Notes: generated by a model not told the origin, from the sequence alone. Shown: positions 20,598 to 49,652, counted from the first letter of the stretch. The stretch is DNA of 64,000 nt from Candidatus Latescibacterota bacterium (GCA_965242865.1 CBDETK010000013.1:3680001-3744000); one strand, 5' to 3'. Program-made: numbers and translations.

Positions 20598-21755
20598 ATG
20601 AAAATTCACGAATATCAAGCCAAAAAAATTCTGCGCCAGTACCAAGTCGCCGTACCTAGTGGCTCCGTGGCCACGACAGCCGACCAAGCCGAACGCATGG
20701 CCGCCGAATTGGGTGGAAAGGTCGTAATTAAGGCCCAGATTCACGCTGGAGGCCGAGGCAAGGGCGGAGGGGTTAAATTAGCGACTAATCCCGAAGAAGT
20801 GCGCCAAGCGGCCAGCGAGATTCTCGGCATGCAGCTCGTTACTCACCAGACTGGTCCAGAAGGCCAAAAGGTCAAGCAAGTCCTAGTGGAGAAGGCCTCG
20901 AATATAGAACGCGAGTTTTACTTGGGCATCACCCTCGACCGGGCACAGAGTAAGCTGGTGGTTATGGCCAGCCAAGAGGGCGGAGTTGAGATTGAGGAGG
21001 TCGCCGCTGCGACCCCAGAAAAAATTCTCAAGGAAACGGTCGATCCTAGAGTGGGGCTACAGGCATTCCAAGCAACACGCCTAGCATTTGGGCTTGGCTT
21101 TGAAGGCAAGCAGGTTCGCCAAGCAACCCGTTTTATCCTTAGCCTCTACAGGGCCTATGTCGATGCCGACTGCTCGCTGGTCGAGATCAATCCCTTGGTG
21201 GTGACCGCCGACGGGCAGCTCTTGGCACTGGATGCCAAAATAGACATAGACGACAACGCGCTCTTCCGCCACCCCGACTTAGCGAAAATGCACGATGTGG
21301 ATGAAGAGGAGGAGTTGGAGGTCGAAGCAGCCAAATACGGTCTGAACTACATCAAGCTCGACGGCAATATCGGTTGTATGGTCAACGGTGCCGGATTAGC
21401 GATGGCCACTATGGACATCATCAAGCTCTCTGGTGCTGAGCCAGCCAATTTTCTGGATGTAGGCGGAGGGGCCAGTGCTGAGACCGTGGAAAATGGCTTC
21501 CGCATTTTGCTTTCCGACCCGAATGTAAAGGCCATACTCATCAATATCTTCGGAGGCATTGTGCGCTGTGACCGCGTGGCCGCAGGCGTGATTGAGGCGC
21601 GCAAAAATATTGAAGTCAATGTGCCTATCGTCGTGCGACTGGCCGGGACCAACGCGGATGTGGCTGCCGAGATGCTGGAAAACTCCGACATGGACTTTGC
21701 CGTTGGGCACGGGCTAAAAGACGCGGCGGCGATGGTTAAGGCGACTATTCCATAA
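20598..21755 (+). CDS. sucC: Succinyl-CoA synthetase beta subunit
   Basis: [45 protein letters not shown]. Confidence 0.98.
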
Positions 21756-21774
21756 GAGTAAGAGGAGTACAAGG

Positions 21775-22644
21775 ATGAGTGTTTTAATTGACGAAAACAC
21801 CAAGGTTTTTGTACAGGCAATTACTGGGTCGGAGGGATCTTTTCACACTCGGCAAATGCTGGAGTACGGCACAAAGGTGGTAGGAGGAGCGACACCTGGC
21901 AAAGGCGGCCAAGAATTTGAAGGCATTCCGGTGTTTAATACGGTCGCCGAAGGCGTTGATGCCTCTGGTGCCAATGCTTCAATCATCTTTGTGCCAGCTC
22001 CCTTTGCCGCCGATGCCATCATGGAAGCGGCCGATGCCGGTCTAGAGTTGATCATCTGTATCAGCGAAAATATTCCCGTGAGCGACATGGTTAAAGCCTA
22101 CCATTATGTACAGGCGCACTCTACCCGGCTGATCGGGCCTAATTGCCCTGGCGTCATCTCGCCGGGGAAGTGTAAAGTCGGCATTATGCCCGCCTTTATT
22201 CACCAGCTAGGTCGCGTGGGTATTATCTCGCGCAGTGGAACGCTGACCTATGAAGCCGTGGGGCAACTTACTGAGCGGGGCTTAGGCCAGTCCACTGCTA
22301 TCGGCATTGGCGGCGACCCAATTATCGGGACGCGCTTTGTAGATGCGCTGGCACTTTTTAAGGACGACCCTGAAACCGATGCGGTCGTGATGATCGGCGA
22401 GATCGGCGGCACCGCTGAAGAAGAGGCGGCCGCCTACATCAAAGAGTGCTACGACAAGCCTGTTATTGGCTTTATCGCGGGGCGCACGGCACCTCCGGGA
22501 CGGCGGATGGGACATGCAGGAGCCATTATTTCAGGGGGTAAGGGAACAGCCGAGGACAAGATGGCGGCGATGCGGGAAGCGGGAATTCACATCTGTGAGA
22601 GTCCTGCGGAAATTGGGGAAACGGTAGAGAAGGTGCTGAGTTGA
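21775..22644 (+). CDS. sucD: Succinyl-CoA synthetase alpha subunit
   Basis: [28 protein letters not shown]. Confidence 0.98.
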
Positions 22645-22693: not shown

Positions 22694-23644
22694 CTACACA
22701 TCAAGCTGTCTTTGAATGGGCATCGCCTGTAGATAACCCCGAGTGCGGCTGGACCAGAACAGATAACTAAAGACCAAATCCGGGACGTAGGTTTTCATCA
22801 GCCAGCGGGTCAACCAGCGGATTGGGTAGTGAATCGGCGGCGACAGGGCTAGCTGAAGTGCGATCCGCCGAGGAGAAAATCCAGAGGCCCTGATGAAGTC
22901 CAGCCAGAGTACGGCGTCAAGTTCAGGGTGCTTGCGTAAAAGGACGGGGATTGACTTGCTGCCGTAAGTTTGCATTAAGCGGCAGAGTGGCTCCAATGAA
23001 CGCAAGTGATAGTGGTAGGACAGGGCTTCAGGAGCATAGTAAAGCGGAATACCCGCTAAATGGAGGCGATACCCCAATTCTAGATCTTCGCCGCCATAAG
23101 CAGTGAGATCCTCGTCAAAAAAACCCACGCGGAGCAGGGATGACCGGCGAACCGAGGAGTTGCCGGTGACGAAGCACTTGAAAGGTATGGGCTTTTCCGC
23201 GTCAATTCTGTGAACCCCCCTCCTTTCGAGATAGCGGGTTAGGGATGTAGGGGGAATTTCAGGGGCAAAGCGGATGTTGCCGATAAAAACGGCTTCCGCG
23301 TGGGTTTGATGCCGTTGGGCATGGGCACGGAGGAAATTTATGCCGACGGTCATATCGCTGTCGAGAAAGATGACCAGATCACCGCTGGCGACTTGAAGTG
23401 CTGCGTTGCGTGCCCGAGCTCGTCCCTGATTCTGTTTGTTGCGAATCAACCGCAACCGTAAAGGCGCGACTGCCGCATATAAGCGCTCGGCGTCCAAGTG
23501 AGGAGAGGCGTCGTCCACCACGATGACTTGAATCGCCTCATGGGGATAATTTTGCTGCGACAGGCTTTTAAGTGCTGCTTCGAGGCACTTAGGTTCGCCA
23601 TAGGTAGGCATTACGATACTGAGCGTCAGCGGGGGGGCACTCAT
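22694..23644 (-). CDS. Glycosyltransferase family 2
   Basis: SIVMPTY, VVDDAS, ARN, FLDSD, GGEDLELGYRL. Confidence 0.9.
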   Translation of the reverse strand: MSAPPLTLSIVMPTYGEPKCLEAALKSLSQQNYPHEAIQVIVVDDASPHLDAERLYAAVAPLRLRLIRNKQNQGRARARNAALQVASGDLVIFLDSDMTVGINFLRAHAQRHQTHAEAVFIGNIRFAPEIPPTSLTRYLERRGVHRIDAEKPIPFKCFVTGNSSVRRSSLLRVGFFDEDLTAYGGEDLELGYRLHLAGIPLYYAPEALSYHYHLRSLEPLCRLMQTYGSKSIPVLLRKHPELDAVLWLDFIRASGFSPRRIALQLALSPPIHYPIRWLTRWLMKTYVPDLVFSYLFWSSRTRGYLQAMPIQRQLDV

Positions 23645-24756
23645 GCTAGGGTTGCATAAAGCTGAGTGAGTTGAGCAGTTTCTCGTTCCCAGTTATAGTG
23701 CTGTGCCGCCTGCAAACTCGCCTTAGCACACGCCTCCCGCTGCTCTGCATTGTCCAAAAAAGTGGCGATTTGCTCCCGGATGGCAACGATATCGGTTGGG
23801 TCGACTGTAGATCCGGTATGCGTTTCGCAGACGATACGCTGCATTTCGGGAAAATTGCTAGCTAGGACCGGTAGCCCGGCCATCATATATTCAAAGAGCT
23901 TGTTGGGCAGAGAGTAGTAAAAGCTCTTGCCCGTGCCTTTGATAAGACACAGGCCCAAGTCGGCCGAGCAAGTATAGTTGTGAAGTTGGTGAAAGGGCAC
24001 CCGGGGAATAAAATAGACTTGGTCGTCTAGTCTCCCAGCGCGGACTTGGTTTCGCAGGGCCTGTTCGCTAGGTCCATCCCCAATTAAAACTAGGGCCGCG
24101 GCAAGCCCAGCGGCGGCCTTGATTTGCTCACGTAAGCCATTTTCGGTGAGGAATCCTCCTTGGTAGAGAACAATAGGGCGATCATCGGGCAGGTCCAGCG
24201 TTTCGCGTATCAGGTTGCTTTGGACCTTATGGCGGAATAGCGGCAAATTATGCAGCACAACGACCTCGTCAAGGCCGTAACGGTCCTTGAGTGATTGGGC
24301 GATAGACCCGCTGACGGTTATGACTCGATCTACCCGTCTTATCAGCCGCTGCTCCAGCAAACGCCAGCAGGACCGCATCAGCGGCCGGCTGACCAGTGAG
24401 GATTGTTCGGTCCAAAATTCGTGTGAGTCATAAACGATGGGCCGATCTAGTCGCCGTGCAGCCCGTACTGCTGGCCAAAGCGAGTCTAGGTCGTGGGCGT
24501 GGTAGGCATCCGGCTGGATCTCAACCAGTAGTGAATAAGCTCGTTGCCAAAACAAAGGATAGAGACGGCGCAATGAGAGGCTGCGGTCTAGCGGAATCGG
24601 ATAGACTTCAAAATCGTCCCATCCCTTGAGGGGAGCTGAGTTGAACGAGGAGGCGACAATGACGACTTGGTACCCAGCATGGCGTAGCGAAGTGGCCTCT
24701 CGGTAGATGCGGTAGTCGAAATTCAGGTCGGTAAAGGCGACCATACAGATACGCAT
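23641..24756 (-). CDS. Glycosyltransferase family 4
   Basis: D-x-RI-x-REA, YHAHD, YDSHE, SLPNKLFEYMMAGLPV; likely start MRICMV at 24756. Confidence 0.88.
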   Translation of the reverse strand: MRICMVAFTDLNFDYRIYREATSLRHAGYQVVIVASSFNSAPLKGWDDFEVYPIPLDRSLSLRRLYPLFWQRAYSLLVEIQPDAYHAHDLDSLWPAVRAARRLDRPIVYDSHEFWTEQSSLVSRPLMRSCWRLLEQRLIRRVDRVITVSGSIAQSLKDRYGLDEVVVLHNLPLFRHKVQSNLIRETLDLPDDRPIVLYQGGFLTENGLREQIKAAAGLAAALVLIGDGPSEQALRNQVRAGRLDDQVYFIPRVPFHQLHNYTCSADLGLCLIKGTGKSFYYSLPNKLFEYMMAGLPVLASNFPEMQRIVCETHTGSTVDPTDIVAIREQIATFLDNAEQREACAKASLQAAQHYNWERETAQLTQLYATLA

Positions 24757-24822
24757 GATGTACAAAGGATTAGGCATAAAGGCCAAAAATAAAAGCAGCC
24801 CTTCTAAAGTGGGCTGCTTCTT

Positions 24823-24991
24823 AAAAAAAGAGTGTGGCGGCCAGATGGTGTGATCTTGAAACGCAAGTGAGATCCTCAAACGAGGCGGTGTGGGGAGGTA
24901 GTTTTGAAGATCTCAATGACCCGAAAAGGGAAATCCGAGCTTCGCGGATCAGGATTTTGGCCACGCTATGCGGACCGCCACACTCTATGTT
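24823..24991 (-). ncRNA. Candidate structured ncRNA (~165 nt; 6S-like rod or novel family)
   Basis: 12-bp perfect terminal IR (24829-24840 / 24975-24986), 13-bp internal hairpin (24868-24880 / 24903-24915), minus-strand promoter immediately upstream and U-tract immediately downstream. Confidence 0.6.
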
Positions 24992-24998
24992 GGAAATA

Positions 24999-25027
24999 AA
25001 AATACACACGCTAGATTGTGTTGTCAA
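24999..25027 (-). promoter_or_regulatory. sigma70 promoter of ncRNA candidate with operator in spacer
   Basis: Minus strand TTGACA-N17-TATTTT; spacer carries ACAC-N8-GTGT (25006-25021). Confidence 0.6.
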
Positions 25028-25064
25028 GTGGAAAAACGGATGCTAAGAAAATGATAATGGAGTC

Positions 25065-25093
25065 TTGCACACTTACAAGTGTGTGCATATCTT
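25065..25093 (+). promoter_or_regulatory. sigma70 promoter of XRE gene with palindromic operator
   Basis: TTGCAC-N17-TATCTT overlapped by TGCACAC-N8-GTGTGCA (25066-25087). Confidence 0.6.
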
Positions 25094-25133
25094 AGTAGAG
25101 GAAATGGTTGAAAATAGTTCAGAAGGATCGCAA

Positions 25134-25667
25134 ATGCAGTTTGCTGAAATGATCAAGGAGGCTCGGCTACAAGCCCACCTAAGCCAGCAGAAATTGGCCG
25201 AACAACTCGTGACGGCGCGAAGGCCCAAGGGCGTATGGGCAACCTATATAGGACAAATTGAGAAGGGGGAGAAGGTTCCTTCCGACGAAATATGTATCAA
25301 GTTGGCCGAGGTATTGGGACTCGACTCCGACAAAGTATTGATTGCGGCTTATGAGGCCAAGGCGAGCTCGGAGGAAGGGCGTGCGATCTATGGTAAGATG
25401 ATGCGCTTGCTGTCGGACCCAGTAGTCAACAAGCTCTTGTCTAACAAAGAGCCTTTGGACCCAGCTCTCTTGAAATTGCTCTCTAATCCAGAAATCGTGG
25501 CACTGCTTGGGGATCAACCGTGGATAGAGGCAGTTGCCCGAGTACATGCGAACCAGAAGGAACGCGATGTATTGTCCCTGCTCGCTTTAGCAGAGGCGAT
25601 GGACGATAAACAGTGGAATATGATAATGGGCCTTATAGAGACTTGGGGCTTAGGGCTACCTAGTTGA
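25134..25667 (+). CDS. XRE-family HTH transcriptional regulator
   Basis: IKEAR-x4-LSQQKLA...YIGQIEKGEKVPS...KLAEVLG; helical C-terminal domain of unknown function. Confidence 0.85.
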   Translation: MQFAEMIKEARLQAHLSQQKLAEQLVTARRPKGVWATYIGQIEKGEKVPSDEICIKLAEVLGLDSDKVLIAAYEAKASSEEGRAIYGKMMRLLSDPVVNKLLSNKEPLDPALLKLLSNPEIVALLGDQPWIEAVARVHANQKERDVLSLLALAEAMDDKQWNMIMGLIETWGLGLPS

Positions 25668-26225: not shown

Positions 26226-26921
26226 CTACGGCCCCTCAGATTGGGCTTCAGCACTTGCTTTATTAACGAGCAATTCGATTGCGTCCCGTAGCCGAGCGGC
26301 CTCTTCGTATTCTTCGCAGATAATGGCCTGTTGTAGCTGGTGCTGAAGCAGACTGAGTTCGTCCTTCTCTTCTTTGAGGGGCTGTTGAGTTTCGGCTTCT
26401 TCAGCGTTCCGCTTCAAGGGGCGGATATTGAGCGATTTGGAAATCTGCGCTTCAAAATCATAGAAACGGTTCAGGGTGTGTTCAACGTCCAAGTCGGTCT
26501 CCAAAGGCTCCAAGCCCAGCTCGTCCAGCAACCTATGAGAAACGTAGATAGGCGCGTCAGTACGCAAGGCCAAAGCAATCGCGTCGCTGGGACGTGCGTC
26601 GAGGTCTTTTATTGTGTGATCCTTCTCAATGACGACCCTCGCGTAGTAAATTGAGTGGCGCACGTTGTGAATGACAACTTGGCGGACACTCACCGCAAGG
26701 TAGTCGACCATAGAAGAGAGCAAGTCGTAAGAAATCGGACGTATGGGCCCATCGTCTTCTAGCCGCATCCGAATGGCCGCGGCCTCAAACTCGCCAATGG
26801 GAATGGGCAAGAGCCGCGGCAGTTGACCTTCCTTCTCGCTCAACCAGACCAAGGGCTTGTCATCTCGCAAGTAGGGACTAACCTTGACCACGGTCATCTC
26901 GACTAAAGAGGTATTACTCAT
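26226..26921 (-). CDS. Bifunctional nuclease (DUF151) with C-terminal UVR domain, copy 1
   Basis: LPIPIGEFEAAAI, RPISYDL, DARPSDAIALALR, AIICEEYEEAARLRD. Confidence 0.9.
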   Translation of the reverse strand: MSNTSLVEMTVVKVSPYLRDDKPLVWLSEKEGQLPRLLPIPIGEFEAAAIRMRLEDDGPIRPISYDLLSSMVDYLAVSVRQVVIHNVRHSIYYARVVIEKDHTIKDLDARPSDAIALALRTDAPIYVSHRLLDELGLEPLETDLDVEHTLNRFYDFEAQISKSLNIRPLKRNAEEAETQQPLKEEKDELSLLQHQLQQAIICEEYEEAARLRDAIELLVNKASAEAQSEGP

Positions 26922-27526
26922 TAATCATCCCTGTCGAGGCGGCTGATCTCGTCGCGCAGCCGCGCCGCCTCCTCGTAGATCTCTTCGGCAACAGCTTGGT
27001 CCATGCGTCTTTTGAGTCGTTCTAATTGGCTGATGGCTGGGGGGGCGATGACGGGCGGTGCGGCCACGGGTCTGGCGAGGGCTTCAACTTTAGTTGGAAC
27101 CCATTGGTCATCGTCGGAGCGGACGCAGCCCACCTCTTTGAGGATTTCGACCGCGGCGTAGATCGGTGCGCGAAAGCGCAAGGCCAAGGCAATTGCATCG
27201 CTGGGACGTGCGTCGATCGTGTGAGTCTTGCCCTCGTCGTCGACGAGGTGAACCTCAGCGTAGTACGTTCCCTCATGTGAGTTAAAGTAAGTGATTTCGA
27301 CCCGGGCTACCCGAGCATGGACATTGGCGAGAATCTGATGGGCTAGGTCGTAGCTGATGGGGCGCACTGATTGCCGCTTGCTGTGGGCTATAGAAATGGC
27401 GGCCGCCTCAAAGCGGCCAATGACAATGTGCAGATAATAATTGCCCTCAACTTCTTTGAGTACTACTTCAGGGTATAAAGACTGAGATTTGCTGCTTAAA
27501 ACCTCCTTGACTTCCATCAGAACCAT
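26921..27526 (-). CDS. Bifunctional nuclease (DUF151) with C-terminal UVR domain, copy 2
   Basis: IGRFEAAAI, RPISYDL, DARPSDAIALALR, AVAEEIYEEAARLRDEI. Confidence 0.9.
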   Translation of the reverse strand: MVLMEVKEVLSSKSQSLYPEVVLKEVEGNYYLHIVIGRFEAAAISIAHSKRQSVRPISYDLAHQILANVHARVARVEITYFNSHEGTYYAEVHLVDDEGKTHTIDARPSDAIALALRFRAPIYAAVEILKEVGCVRSDDDQWVPTKVEALARPVAAPPVIAPPAISQLERLKRRMDQAVAEEIYEEAARLRDEISRLDRDD

Positions 27527-27597
27527 AGCGGTGCATCGCGGTTTAGTGGGCTGCTGTCGTTTAACGTGTGAAATATAATACGGCCTCAAAGTAAGTG

Positions 27598-27777
27598 TCA
27601 ACCGACGGGTGCTTCTTGGCCATCCGGCAAATCGTCCTCTTTGTTATTCAGCTTCAACTCAAGTTCTGCGAGTTGGCGGCCTAGTTCCCCGGTGCGCCGG
27701 TTTAGGCGCATCAGATAGGCAAAAAGCACGGCCCACACGGCCGCGAAGGCGGCAAACAAGTAGTGGAGATTGTCCAT
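27598..27777 (-). CDS. ccmD: Heme exporter protein CcmD (not in ORF track)
   Basis: MDNLHYLFAAFAAVWAVLFAYLMRLNRRTGELGRQLAELE...APVG*, 59 aa, single TM plus charged tail, directly after ccmC. Confidence 0.8.
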   Translation of the reverse strand: MDNLHYLFAAFAAVWAVLFAYLMRLNRRTGELGRQLAELELKLNNKEDDLPDGQEAPVG

Positions 27778-43197: not shown

Positions 43198-43272
43198 AGC
43201 CCGGTCGTTCAATTGGTAGGACAACGGATTTTGGTTCCGTTTATCGAGGTTCGAGTCCTCGCCGGGCTGCCA
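43198..43272 (+). tRNA. tRNA-Gln (TTG)
   Basis: AGCCCGG/CCGGGCT acceptor, ACGGA-TTTTGGT-TCCGT anticodon arm, GTTCGAGTC T-loop, encoded CCA. Confidence 0.95.
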
Positions 43273-49553: not shown

Positions 49554-49652
49554 GGGAGCGGATGCGTGCCTGGTGGCTGTCGCGGACTTCAAATCCGTTG
49601 CGGCGTAGCGAGAGTTGCGCTGGGTGGGTTCGATTCCCACACGTTCCCGCCA
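49554..49652 (+). tRNA. selC: tRNA-Sec (TCA)
   Basis: GCGGA-CTTCAAA-TCCGT anticodon arm, D-loop TGGT, long variable arm with GAGA loop, GTGGG-TTCGATT-CCCAC, GCCA end. Confidence 0.93.

Follow-up and report, generated by a model that had tools for sequence, protein, structure and literature searches.

A new family of abundant structured RNA upstream of glycosyltransferase genes in uncultured bacteria, with a candidate base-pairing partner at the zwf–glk genes

The 64,000-nucleotide (nt) stretch of Candidatus Latescibacterota DNA analyzed here (GCA_965242865.1, CBDETK010000013.1:3680001-3744000; hereafter the window) encodes on its minus strand a compact RNA, termed RNA-A, which is almost certainly a genuine, structured and highly expressed noncoding RNA (ncRNA) of a new family. 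As judged from genome searches, it is specific to one family of uncultured bacteria. A preliminary description of the window had proposed a stable, independently transcribed structured ncRNA at this location, and the proposal is borne out by a fold that is conserved and covaries, by single-copy occurrence, and by discrete RNA contigs of high depth. Functionally, RNA-A may be a trans-acting base-pairing or sponge RNA that works through an invariant C-rich loop, with a second small RNA (RNA-B) and the zwf–glk leader as its leading partner; the probability assigned to this reading is about 0.45. RNA regulators are almost wholly undescribed in this lineage, which is uncultured and largely associated with sponges and marine settings, and full-text literature searches for small RNAs or 6S RNA in these groups turned up no paper on the subject. 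The principal elements of the locus are as follows.

24826 to 24987, minus strand: RNA-A, abundant species of ~162 nts, from RNA contigs of runs X15, X17 and X20.
24999 to 25027, minus strand: sigma-70-type promoter TTGACA-N17-TATTTT, scoring 10/12 in a promoter scan; −35 box TTGACA at 25027-25022, −10 box TATTTT at 25004-24999, spacer of 17 nts.
24973 to 24986, minus strand: 5′ strand of the closing helix P1, AGAGUGUGGCGGUC, from fold and covariation.
24829 to 24842, minus strand: 3′ strand of P1, GGCCGCCACACUCU, from fold and covariation.
24919 to 24940, minus strand: hairpin P5 with a C-rich loop and conserved CCC-UUU, from covariation.
24868 to 24915, minus strand: hairpin P6 with a 13-bp stem, UGAGAUCUUCAAA/UUUGAGGAUCUCA (24915-24903 / 24880-24868), from covariation.
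24881 to 24902, minus strand: apical loop of P6, 22 nts, C-rich, AACUACCUCCCCACACCGCCUCG(-like), the proposed base-pairing (seed) site.
24784 to 24819, minus strand: second, canonical intrinsic terminator, AAGCAGCCC ... GGGCUGCUU plus U-run; hairpin 24819-24793, U-run to ~24784.
23641 to 24756, minus strand: GT4 glycosyltransferase gene, ATG at 24756, product starting MRICMVAFTDL (Pfam Glyco_transf_4 / Glycos_transf_1).
22694 to 23644, minus strand: GT2 gene, after GT4 (Pfam Glycos_transf_2).
25134 to 25667, plus strand: divergent XRE-type helix-turn-helix (HTH) gene, ATG at 25134 (Pfam HTH_3, E = 4e-11).

RNA-A is made from its own sigma-70-type promoter. Three promoter-like sites occur in 24500-25400 against 0.7 expected, and the RNA-A promoter is identical among the closer relatives in genus g1. 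Other genera carry the same type of promoter ~70 nts farther upstream; outside the main genus the best promoter lies 67-80 nts 5′ of the RNA-A core, which makes 5′ processing likely there. At the 3′ end, a run of seven uridines (24829-24823, minus strand) continues from the 3′ strand of P1, and most relatives have a U-rich tract after P1. Behind it, the second terminator insulates the GT4–GT2 genes. It is kept in nearly all relatives' loci and comprises 10 pairs, several of which change on both sides in a MAFFT/RNAalifold alignment. Promoter scan, U-run, terminator and RNA contigs together describe a discrete transcript with its own promoter and terminator. The promoter, the paired ends, the U-run, and the 13-bp stem with its 22-nt C-rich loop had all been recognized in the preliminary description and are confirmed in the sequence. 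Three of its details needed amending: the −10 box ends 12 nts before the helix, not 7; the separate terminator hairpin at 24819-24793 had been missed; and the XRE gene, taken to be downstream, is on the plus strand and divergent. Within the promoter spacer lies a palindrome, ACACA-N8-TGTGT (25021-25004, minus strand), and ACAC...GTGT palindromes also recur 5′ of RNA-A in other genera. The spacer palindrome is a candidate operator, possibly one bound by the divergent XRE protein.

The fold is supported both thermodynamically and by comparison among relatives. As a single sequence, RNA-A folds with a minimum free energy of −60.3 kcal/mol (z = −4.86), a stability reached by none of 200 shuffles. 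The plus strand of the region also folds (z = −4.26) and is nearly as stable, so the single-sequence fold cannot decide the strand. Across 45 distinct RNA-A sequences aligned to a covariance model, a fitting that itself favors the structure, 94.8% of cells are in standard pairs versus 39.7-47.7% when the 3′ partners are slid by one to three columns, and 27 of the 43 pairs change on both sides; none of 500 shuffles reaches any of these measures. The same helices emerged independently from a MAFFT/RNAalifold analysis, in which compensation was seen for 17 of 49 pairs. The alignment contains 301 G-U cells versus 27 A-C cells, and RNA-A is therefore read from the minus strand. Together with the orientation of the promoter and terminators, this count settles the strand at the level of sequence, and the plus-strand possibility raised earlier can be dropped.

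In the consensus, the closing helix P1 and small inner helices lead to a three-way junction that carries P5 and P6. P1 (13-14 bp) contributes 13 pairs to the alignment, with 97.9% of cells paired and three pairs changed on both sides. P5 (helix 4; 95.7% of cells paired) shows G-U to A-U and G-C changes and pairs CUCGG with UCGGG across relatives; the two small hairpins drawn earlier are better represented as this one hairpin (24940-24919). In P6 (helix 5), 10 of the 12 pairs have changed on both sides, with 96.1% of cells paired. At its apical loop, the run UACCUCC to UUUGA is identical in 31 of 31 BLAST-derived RNA-A sequences and varies only in the most divergent genera; the RNA-A core contains 24 contiguous invariant bases. 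Two loci (L031:1551-1717 and L032:1552-1718, in genomes G023 and G001 of the genus) have a 10-nt tandem duplication of the P1 3′ strand, a second GGCCGCCACA-like copy that gives two alternative closing strands.

RNA-A is unclassified in Rfam. A search of the window at gathering scores returned no match at RNA-A, and at E up to 10 over 24700-25150 only noise of 13.9-18.1 bits appeared, within RNA-A and at or next to the terminator. The genome of the window has one full copy, its remaining BLAST matches being 15-22 nts long. With BLAST, RNA-A turned up essentially once each in 28 of 30 genus genomes and in 30 of 36 family genomes. A covariance model built from 29 sequences (R1) matched 47 of the 151 phylum genomes, each a single time. 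Every match falls within one family, in which RNA-A is present in 46 of 63 genomes and 16 genera; none of 87 genomes from 13 other families matched, at filters whose greater strictness may lose weak matches. The single full copy and the one R1 match per genome in 47 genomes rule out a miniature inverted-repeat transposable element (MITE) or other dispersed repeat, a check that the preliminary description had named. A small protein was likewise considered and rejected: the longest open reading frames (ORFs) over the core range from 0 to 108 amino acids in 45 loci, four of which have none, and the 68-residue ORF in the window, which would begin at the TTG of the −35 box, was rejected as coding. 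In a collection of species-representative genomes, 36 places match a 24-nt segment of the loop exactly; all lie in metagenome-assembled genomes (MAGs), under the labels Latescibacterota, Latescibacteria, Gemmatimonadetes/-ota/-aceae and uncultured bacterium, with one Gemmatimonas phototrophica. The family's MAGs are publicly labeled Latescibacterota or Gemmatimonadota, and several sequencing runs with the RNA-A stretch are listed as sponge, coral or marine metagenomes. RNA-A supplies a ready covariance model for the annotation of such MAGs.

Expression is seen in public metatranscriptomes. Six RNA runs contain 9-13% of the sampled words of 24300-25300, and four of the runs (X15, X17, X19 and X20), from four studies, were compared with the RNA-A region. 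In X15, X17 and X20 (three studies), contigs cover just 24826/24828 to 24968/24987. The summed word depth over RNA-A reaches 177,926 in X15, 6,308 in X20 and 755 in X17, whereas the GT4 flank has a depth of 0 in all three and the XRE flank 35 in X15 and 0 in X17 and X20. RNA-A thus stands far above its own flanking genes in the three metatranscriptomes where it is seen at high depth. These depths derive from assembled contigs rather than reads and sum over related strains, such that strand and exact ends are not displayed, and uncovered flanks do not prove that GT4 is silent. Apparent Illumina adapter letters follow 24987 in X20, and in X17 they appear after 13 more bases past 24968, which places the 5′ end of RNA-A at or just inside the start of P1. 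Toward the 3′ side, the depth is 0 in the bin 24776-24809 in X15, X17 and X20; the second terminator is hence outside the abundant species, which ends after P1 and a few uridines, before that hairpin. X19 has an even depth of ~20 over the whole stretch at 88-95% likeness, and represents a relative, possibly as DNA carry-over. A circular or permuted RNA-A was considered for a joint in X15 that goes back from 24966 to 24839 with five extra letters, and was rejected: the joint resembles the mis-laid 5′ region of an L032-type relative.

A search of the genome of the window for the complement of the apical loop led to RNA-B: the best site, C13:4348097-4348139 (minus strand), lies inside this predicted small RNA and is the best non-self site bar one in coding sequence.

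Contig C13 of genome G000, 4348083-4348141 (L137:1544-1602), minus strand, outside the window: RNA-B, predicted, ~59-60 nts.

RNA-B is preceded by a promoter, TTGATT-N17-TATATT. The predicted ~59-nt RNA opens with a 7-bp hairpin (stem CUCACAC/GUGUGGG, loop GAGGCG), followed by a terminator hairpin and U-run; the RNA-A loop is complementary to both GAGGCG and the G-run next to it. In Rfam, the best match of RNA-B, ar35, reaches 18 bits where the cut-off is 45. With its promoter and covarying terminator, RNA-B is kept in 24 of 24 g1 genomes. A covariance model from 17 sequences (R2) finds it in g1 (26/26), g20 (7/8), g24 (5/5), g18 (2/3), g17, g7 and g4, and more weakly in g3 (2/2) and g5. No convincing RNA-B was found in g21 and g22, where the RNA-A loop is near-canonical, or in g19, g6, g16, g25 and g2, where it is divergent; RNA-B therefore cannot alone explain the invariance of the loop. 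In the 17-sequence alignment, the terminator stem covaries between genera and the block CGAGGCGGUGU is invariant, its complement being the invariant core of the RNA-A loop; the homologues of g3, g17 and g18 are each one base off this block. In 39 genomes RNA-B lies 40 nts to ~2.8 kb upstream of glk (glucokinase), on the same strand. The gene between them is zwf (glucose-6-phosphate dehydrogenase), and a sugar epimerase gene is divergent.

The complementarity itself comprises 15 contiguous bases of RNA-B (ACGAGGCGGUGUGGG) facing CCCACACCGCCUCGU of RNA-A, and extends to ~24 nts with one bulge and one mismatch. In G000 alone, an exact complement of at least 15 nts is reached by 26 of 300 composition-matched loop shuffles, which is not significant by itself, and the loop complement has a BLAST E value of 0.2 in its own genome. 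As the single-genome match is weak, the case for an RNA-A/RNA-B pair rests on conservation and context. The exact 14-mer CGAGGCGGTGTGGG is present in 51 of 71 genomes of the family, usually at least twice, as the RNA-A antisense and in RNA-B, compared with two matches in 71 genomes for the reversed 14-mer. Many extra copies fall in coding sequence that encodes EAVW (mostly so among the 12 loci inspected) and were set aside; they indicate that chance matches are commoner than the reversed control suggests. At least nine genera have the conserved loop matched by the invariant RNA-B 5′ block, with one compensated and one uncompensated change. Both g3 genomes have ...CCGUCUCG in the RNA-A loop and CGAGACGG... 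in RNA-B, a C to U facing a G to A that converts a G-C pair to A-U and represents one evolutionary event. In g18, a U to A in RNA-B stands opposite an unchanged loop A, and this uncompensated mismatch counts against pairing. A C to U in g17 RNA-B and an A to G in the G118 loop both yield G-U wobbles, a weak test, as most transitions in a C/A-rich loop do likewise.

Duplexes of −34 to −46 kcal/mol were predicted for 12 of 12 cognate pairs computed. A duplex-energy search for targets was uninformative, returning −28 to −44 kcal/mol in every GC-rich glk upstream region (g19, g6, g16, g7 and g2). Cofolding of full RNA-A and RNA-B nets only −1.8 kcal/mol after both refold, with a program that cannot model a loop–loop kiss. 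Sterically, a 20-bp helix is out of reach for a 22-nt loop in a closed hairpin unless the P6 stem opens, which also counts against pairing.

Taken together, the loop match to RNA-B suggests an RNA-to-RNA control circuit. RNA-A would pair in trans with G-rich RNAs through its invariant, single-stranded, C-rich 22-nt loop, its best-supported partner being RNA-B at the head of the zwf–glk genes. It could either titrate RNA-B as a sponge or alter the termination or stability of the zwf–glk leader; by either route, glucose catabolism would be coupled to the glycosyltransferase locus adjoining RNA-A. RNA-A is a strong candidate for a regulator peculiar to its family and linked to the partitioning of sugar between glycosyltransferases and zwf–glk, and the predicted RNA-A/RNA-B pair is a hypothesis testable in vitro without culturing the organism. 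Small RNAs with C-rich loops that have a G-rich partner or sponge are reportedly exemplified by RsaE/RoxS with RsaI in Firmicutes, and GcvB–SroC is said to be a comparable sponge pair. RNA-A resembles these in its exposed C-rich loops, its predicted pairing with a G-rich second small RNA, and its links to sugar and central-carbon genes. Unlike them, it is larger and far more structured, belongs to a different phylum, shares no sequence or Rfam relation, and has a much longer complementarity (15-24 nts), here predicted from sequence.

Several further units recall RNA-B or the RNA-A loop complement. A second noncoding locus of ~90 nts in g20 (L254:197-286, genome G141) contains GGCGGUGUGGGGAGGU, whose 16 nts complement the RNA-A loop perfectly; similar matches occur at G102:C128:3382-3469 and G143:C50:9078-9165, with only the G141 copy read. 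In genome G130 (genus g26), L156 and L196 are two RNA-B-like units with the same promoter type and seed and a different, longer 3′ structure. A conserved motif, TTGCTCGG-NN-CCG, lies 3′ of the RNA-B terminator (L239-L244, L152, L156, L192) in g3, g4, g5, g18, g24 and g26; for g17 the stretch read takes in no more than its first letters, and g1 is without it. A conserved, terminator-ended short unit at G000 C13:3325118-3325178 (minus strand), with counterparts in other g1 genomes (L246-L251), has only the terminator stem in common with RNA-B and is without the seed. Second-tier R2 matches in g1 (~24-27 bits) were rejected as RNA-B on the same grounds, the terminator being all that is shared and the seed absent.

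The genomic setting raises a cis-acting alternative, in which RNA-A is the leader of the GT4–GT2 operon and governs transcriptional read-through past the terminator(s) into the glycosyltransferase genes. Its domain would then work as a sensor in the manner of a riboswitch, as a protein-dependent attenuator, or through processive antitermination like an EAR/put element, and the abundant 160-nt RNA would be a terminated or trimmed by-product. The idea, already voiced in the preliminary description, stays in play as a rival through its linkage. As is characteristic of a riboswitch or attenuating leader, RNA-A lies directly 5′ of its presumptive target on the same strand: a GT4 orthologue (49-100% identity) follows at ~60-290 nts in 46 of the 47 genomes with RNA-A, a linkage that fits a cis role equally well, while the upstream neighbor switches between an XRE gene (the window, L059, L037, L120 and L136) and a HEAT-repeat gene (L106, L113 and L066). 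Pfam confirmed GT4 in nine of nine loci tested, the most divergent ones included; NCBIfam returned generic or below-cut-off matches alone for GT4 and GT2. Counted to the first in-frame start, or to an M-[HR]-I-C-M start where this conserved form is seen, the interval behind the end of the RNA-A core is mostly ~65-155 nts and includes the terminator hairpin. In the window, the second terminator ends ~30 nts before the GT4 start, and the ~25-100 nts between terminator and start codon leave scant space for a separate promoter. Moreover, RNA-A and GT4 are both missing from all three g23 genomes searched (92-96% complete).

The architecture, however, speaks against such a leader. Inspection of alignments and downstream folds, which was non-exhaustive, revealed no alternative pairing of the invariant core with the terminator, and thus none of the mutually exclusive sensor–terminator pairing of a riboswitch or attenuator. 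From genus to genus the terminator stem varies freely and the RNA-A core does not, P1 is long (13-14 bp) and separate from the terminator, and the abundant species stops short of the terminator hairpin. The linkage is also breakable from both sides. Four g19 genomes keep GT4 with no RNA-A within ~800 nts upstream, and 10 regions upstream of GT4 homologues in other families (33-42% identity) are also without it; run without filters on both sets, the covariance model gave nothing above 11 bits. Conversely, G098 retains RNA-A and its terminator beside a gene of 567 amino acids with no Pfam family, in place of the GT4 orthologue, followed by a more distant GT4-like gene. On this balance, a cis-acting leader is rather unlikely. 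Terminated leaders that double as trans-acting RNAs reportedly exist, as in Listeria SreA, and EAR is an antitermination RNA of polysaccharide operons. In common with these, RNA-A is structured, lies directly 5′ of glycosyltransferase genes, is followed by an intrinsic terminator and accumulates as a short species; it departs from them in having no identifiable expression-platform switch and no Rfam riboswitch or EAR match, and in that RNA-A and GT4 can each occur without the other.

The abundance of RNA-A points in another direction, toward a protein-binding, housekeeping-type RNA: it might sequester RNA polymerase as a functional 6S analogue, or else serve as decoy for some other abundant protein, with the invariant loop as the protein contact. 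Like 6S (~160-190 nts), RNA-A is of a size with other stable, abundant RNAs of ~150-200 nts (~162 nts; contig depth 177,926 versus 0-35 in the flanks), has both ends locked in a long closing helix, possesses its own promoter, and precedes a same-strand gene. Its 24 contiguous invariant bases exceed the typical need of a small RNA seed. Nor did a 6S gene turn up in the lineage: the 6S model RF00013 has no match in the window at the gathering score or in 24700-25150 at E up to 10, none in the genome of the window at E up to 10 (control genomes match), and none in 61 genomes of the class. This gap is nevertheless class-wide and includes families without RNA-A, so RNA-A, confined to one family, does not specifically fill it. 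Where 6S is a rod opened in its middle by a large internal bubble between two long helices, RNA-A has a three-way junction, and its largest unpaired element is the 22-nt hairpin loop. RNA-A also lacks any Rfam match even at E up to 10, and its downstream gene is GT4 rather than the cyclo-ligase gene that often follows 6S. The earlier doubt over a 6S assignment was well placed, and a protein-binding role in general is unlikely.

A bacterial Y RNA bound by Ro is a reading that the available tools refute as far as they allow, and its likelihood is negligible. What favors it is mere resemblance, namely GGUCCG in a closing helix formed from both ends and pyrimidine-rich loops, as in Y RNA and YrlA. 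The genome of the window (93.6% complete), however, has no match to PF05731 (TROVE/Ro), the control search finding Ro in Deinococcus and Bacteroides, and this justifies the reservation first expressed about a Y RNA. No Rfam Y RNA model matches at E up to 10, and the C after GGUC is not kept as a bulge, relatives reading GAUCUG or GGUCUG.

A bolder synthesis would combine sequestration with the proposed pairing. RNA-A would be the lineage's global protein-sequestering regulator standing in for 6S, and RNA-B its genome-encoded release RNA; in a milder form, two terminator-ended leaders, one before the glycosyltransferase genes and one before zwf–glk, would cross-regulate by a loop–loop kiss. The attraction is that the predicted 5′ end of RNA-B almost exactly matches the product RNA that would be templated on the RNA-A loop. 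If true, switching on glucose catabolism would bring RNA-B transcription from the zwf–glk promoter region, and this would release RNA-A from its protein. This synthesis is considered highly improbable.

Elsewhere in the window, the sole Rfam matches are a selenocysteine tRNA at 49554-49648 (plus strand, 70 bits) and an ordinary tRNA at 43198-43269 (plus strand, 59.8 bits). Two adjacent minus-strand genes, 26226-26921 and 26921-27601, each encode a bifunctional-nuclease (BFN) domain, the second also a UVR motif. On the far side of the glycosyltransferase operon, the sucC–sucD (succinyl-CoA ligase) genes (20598-22644, plus strand) converge on the GT2 gene.
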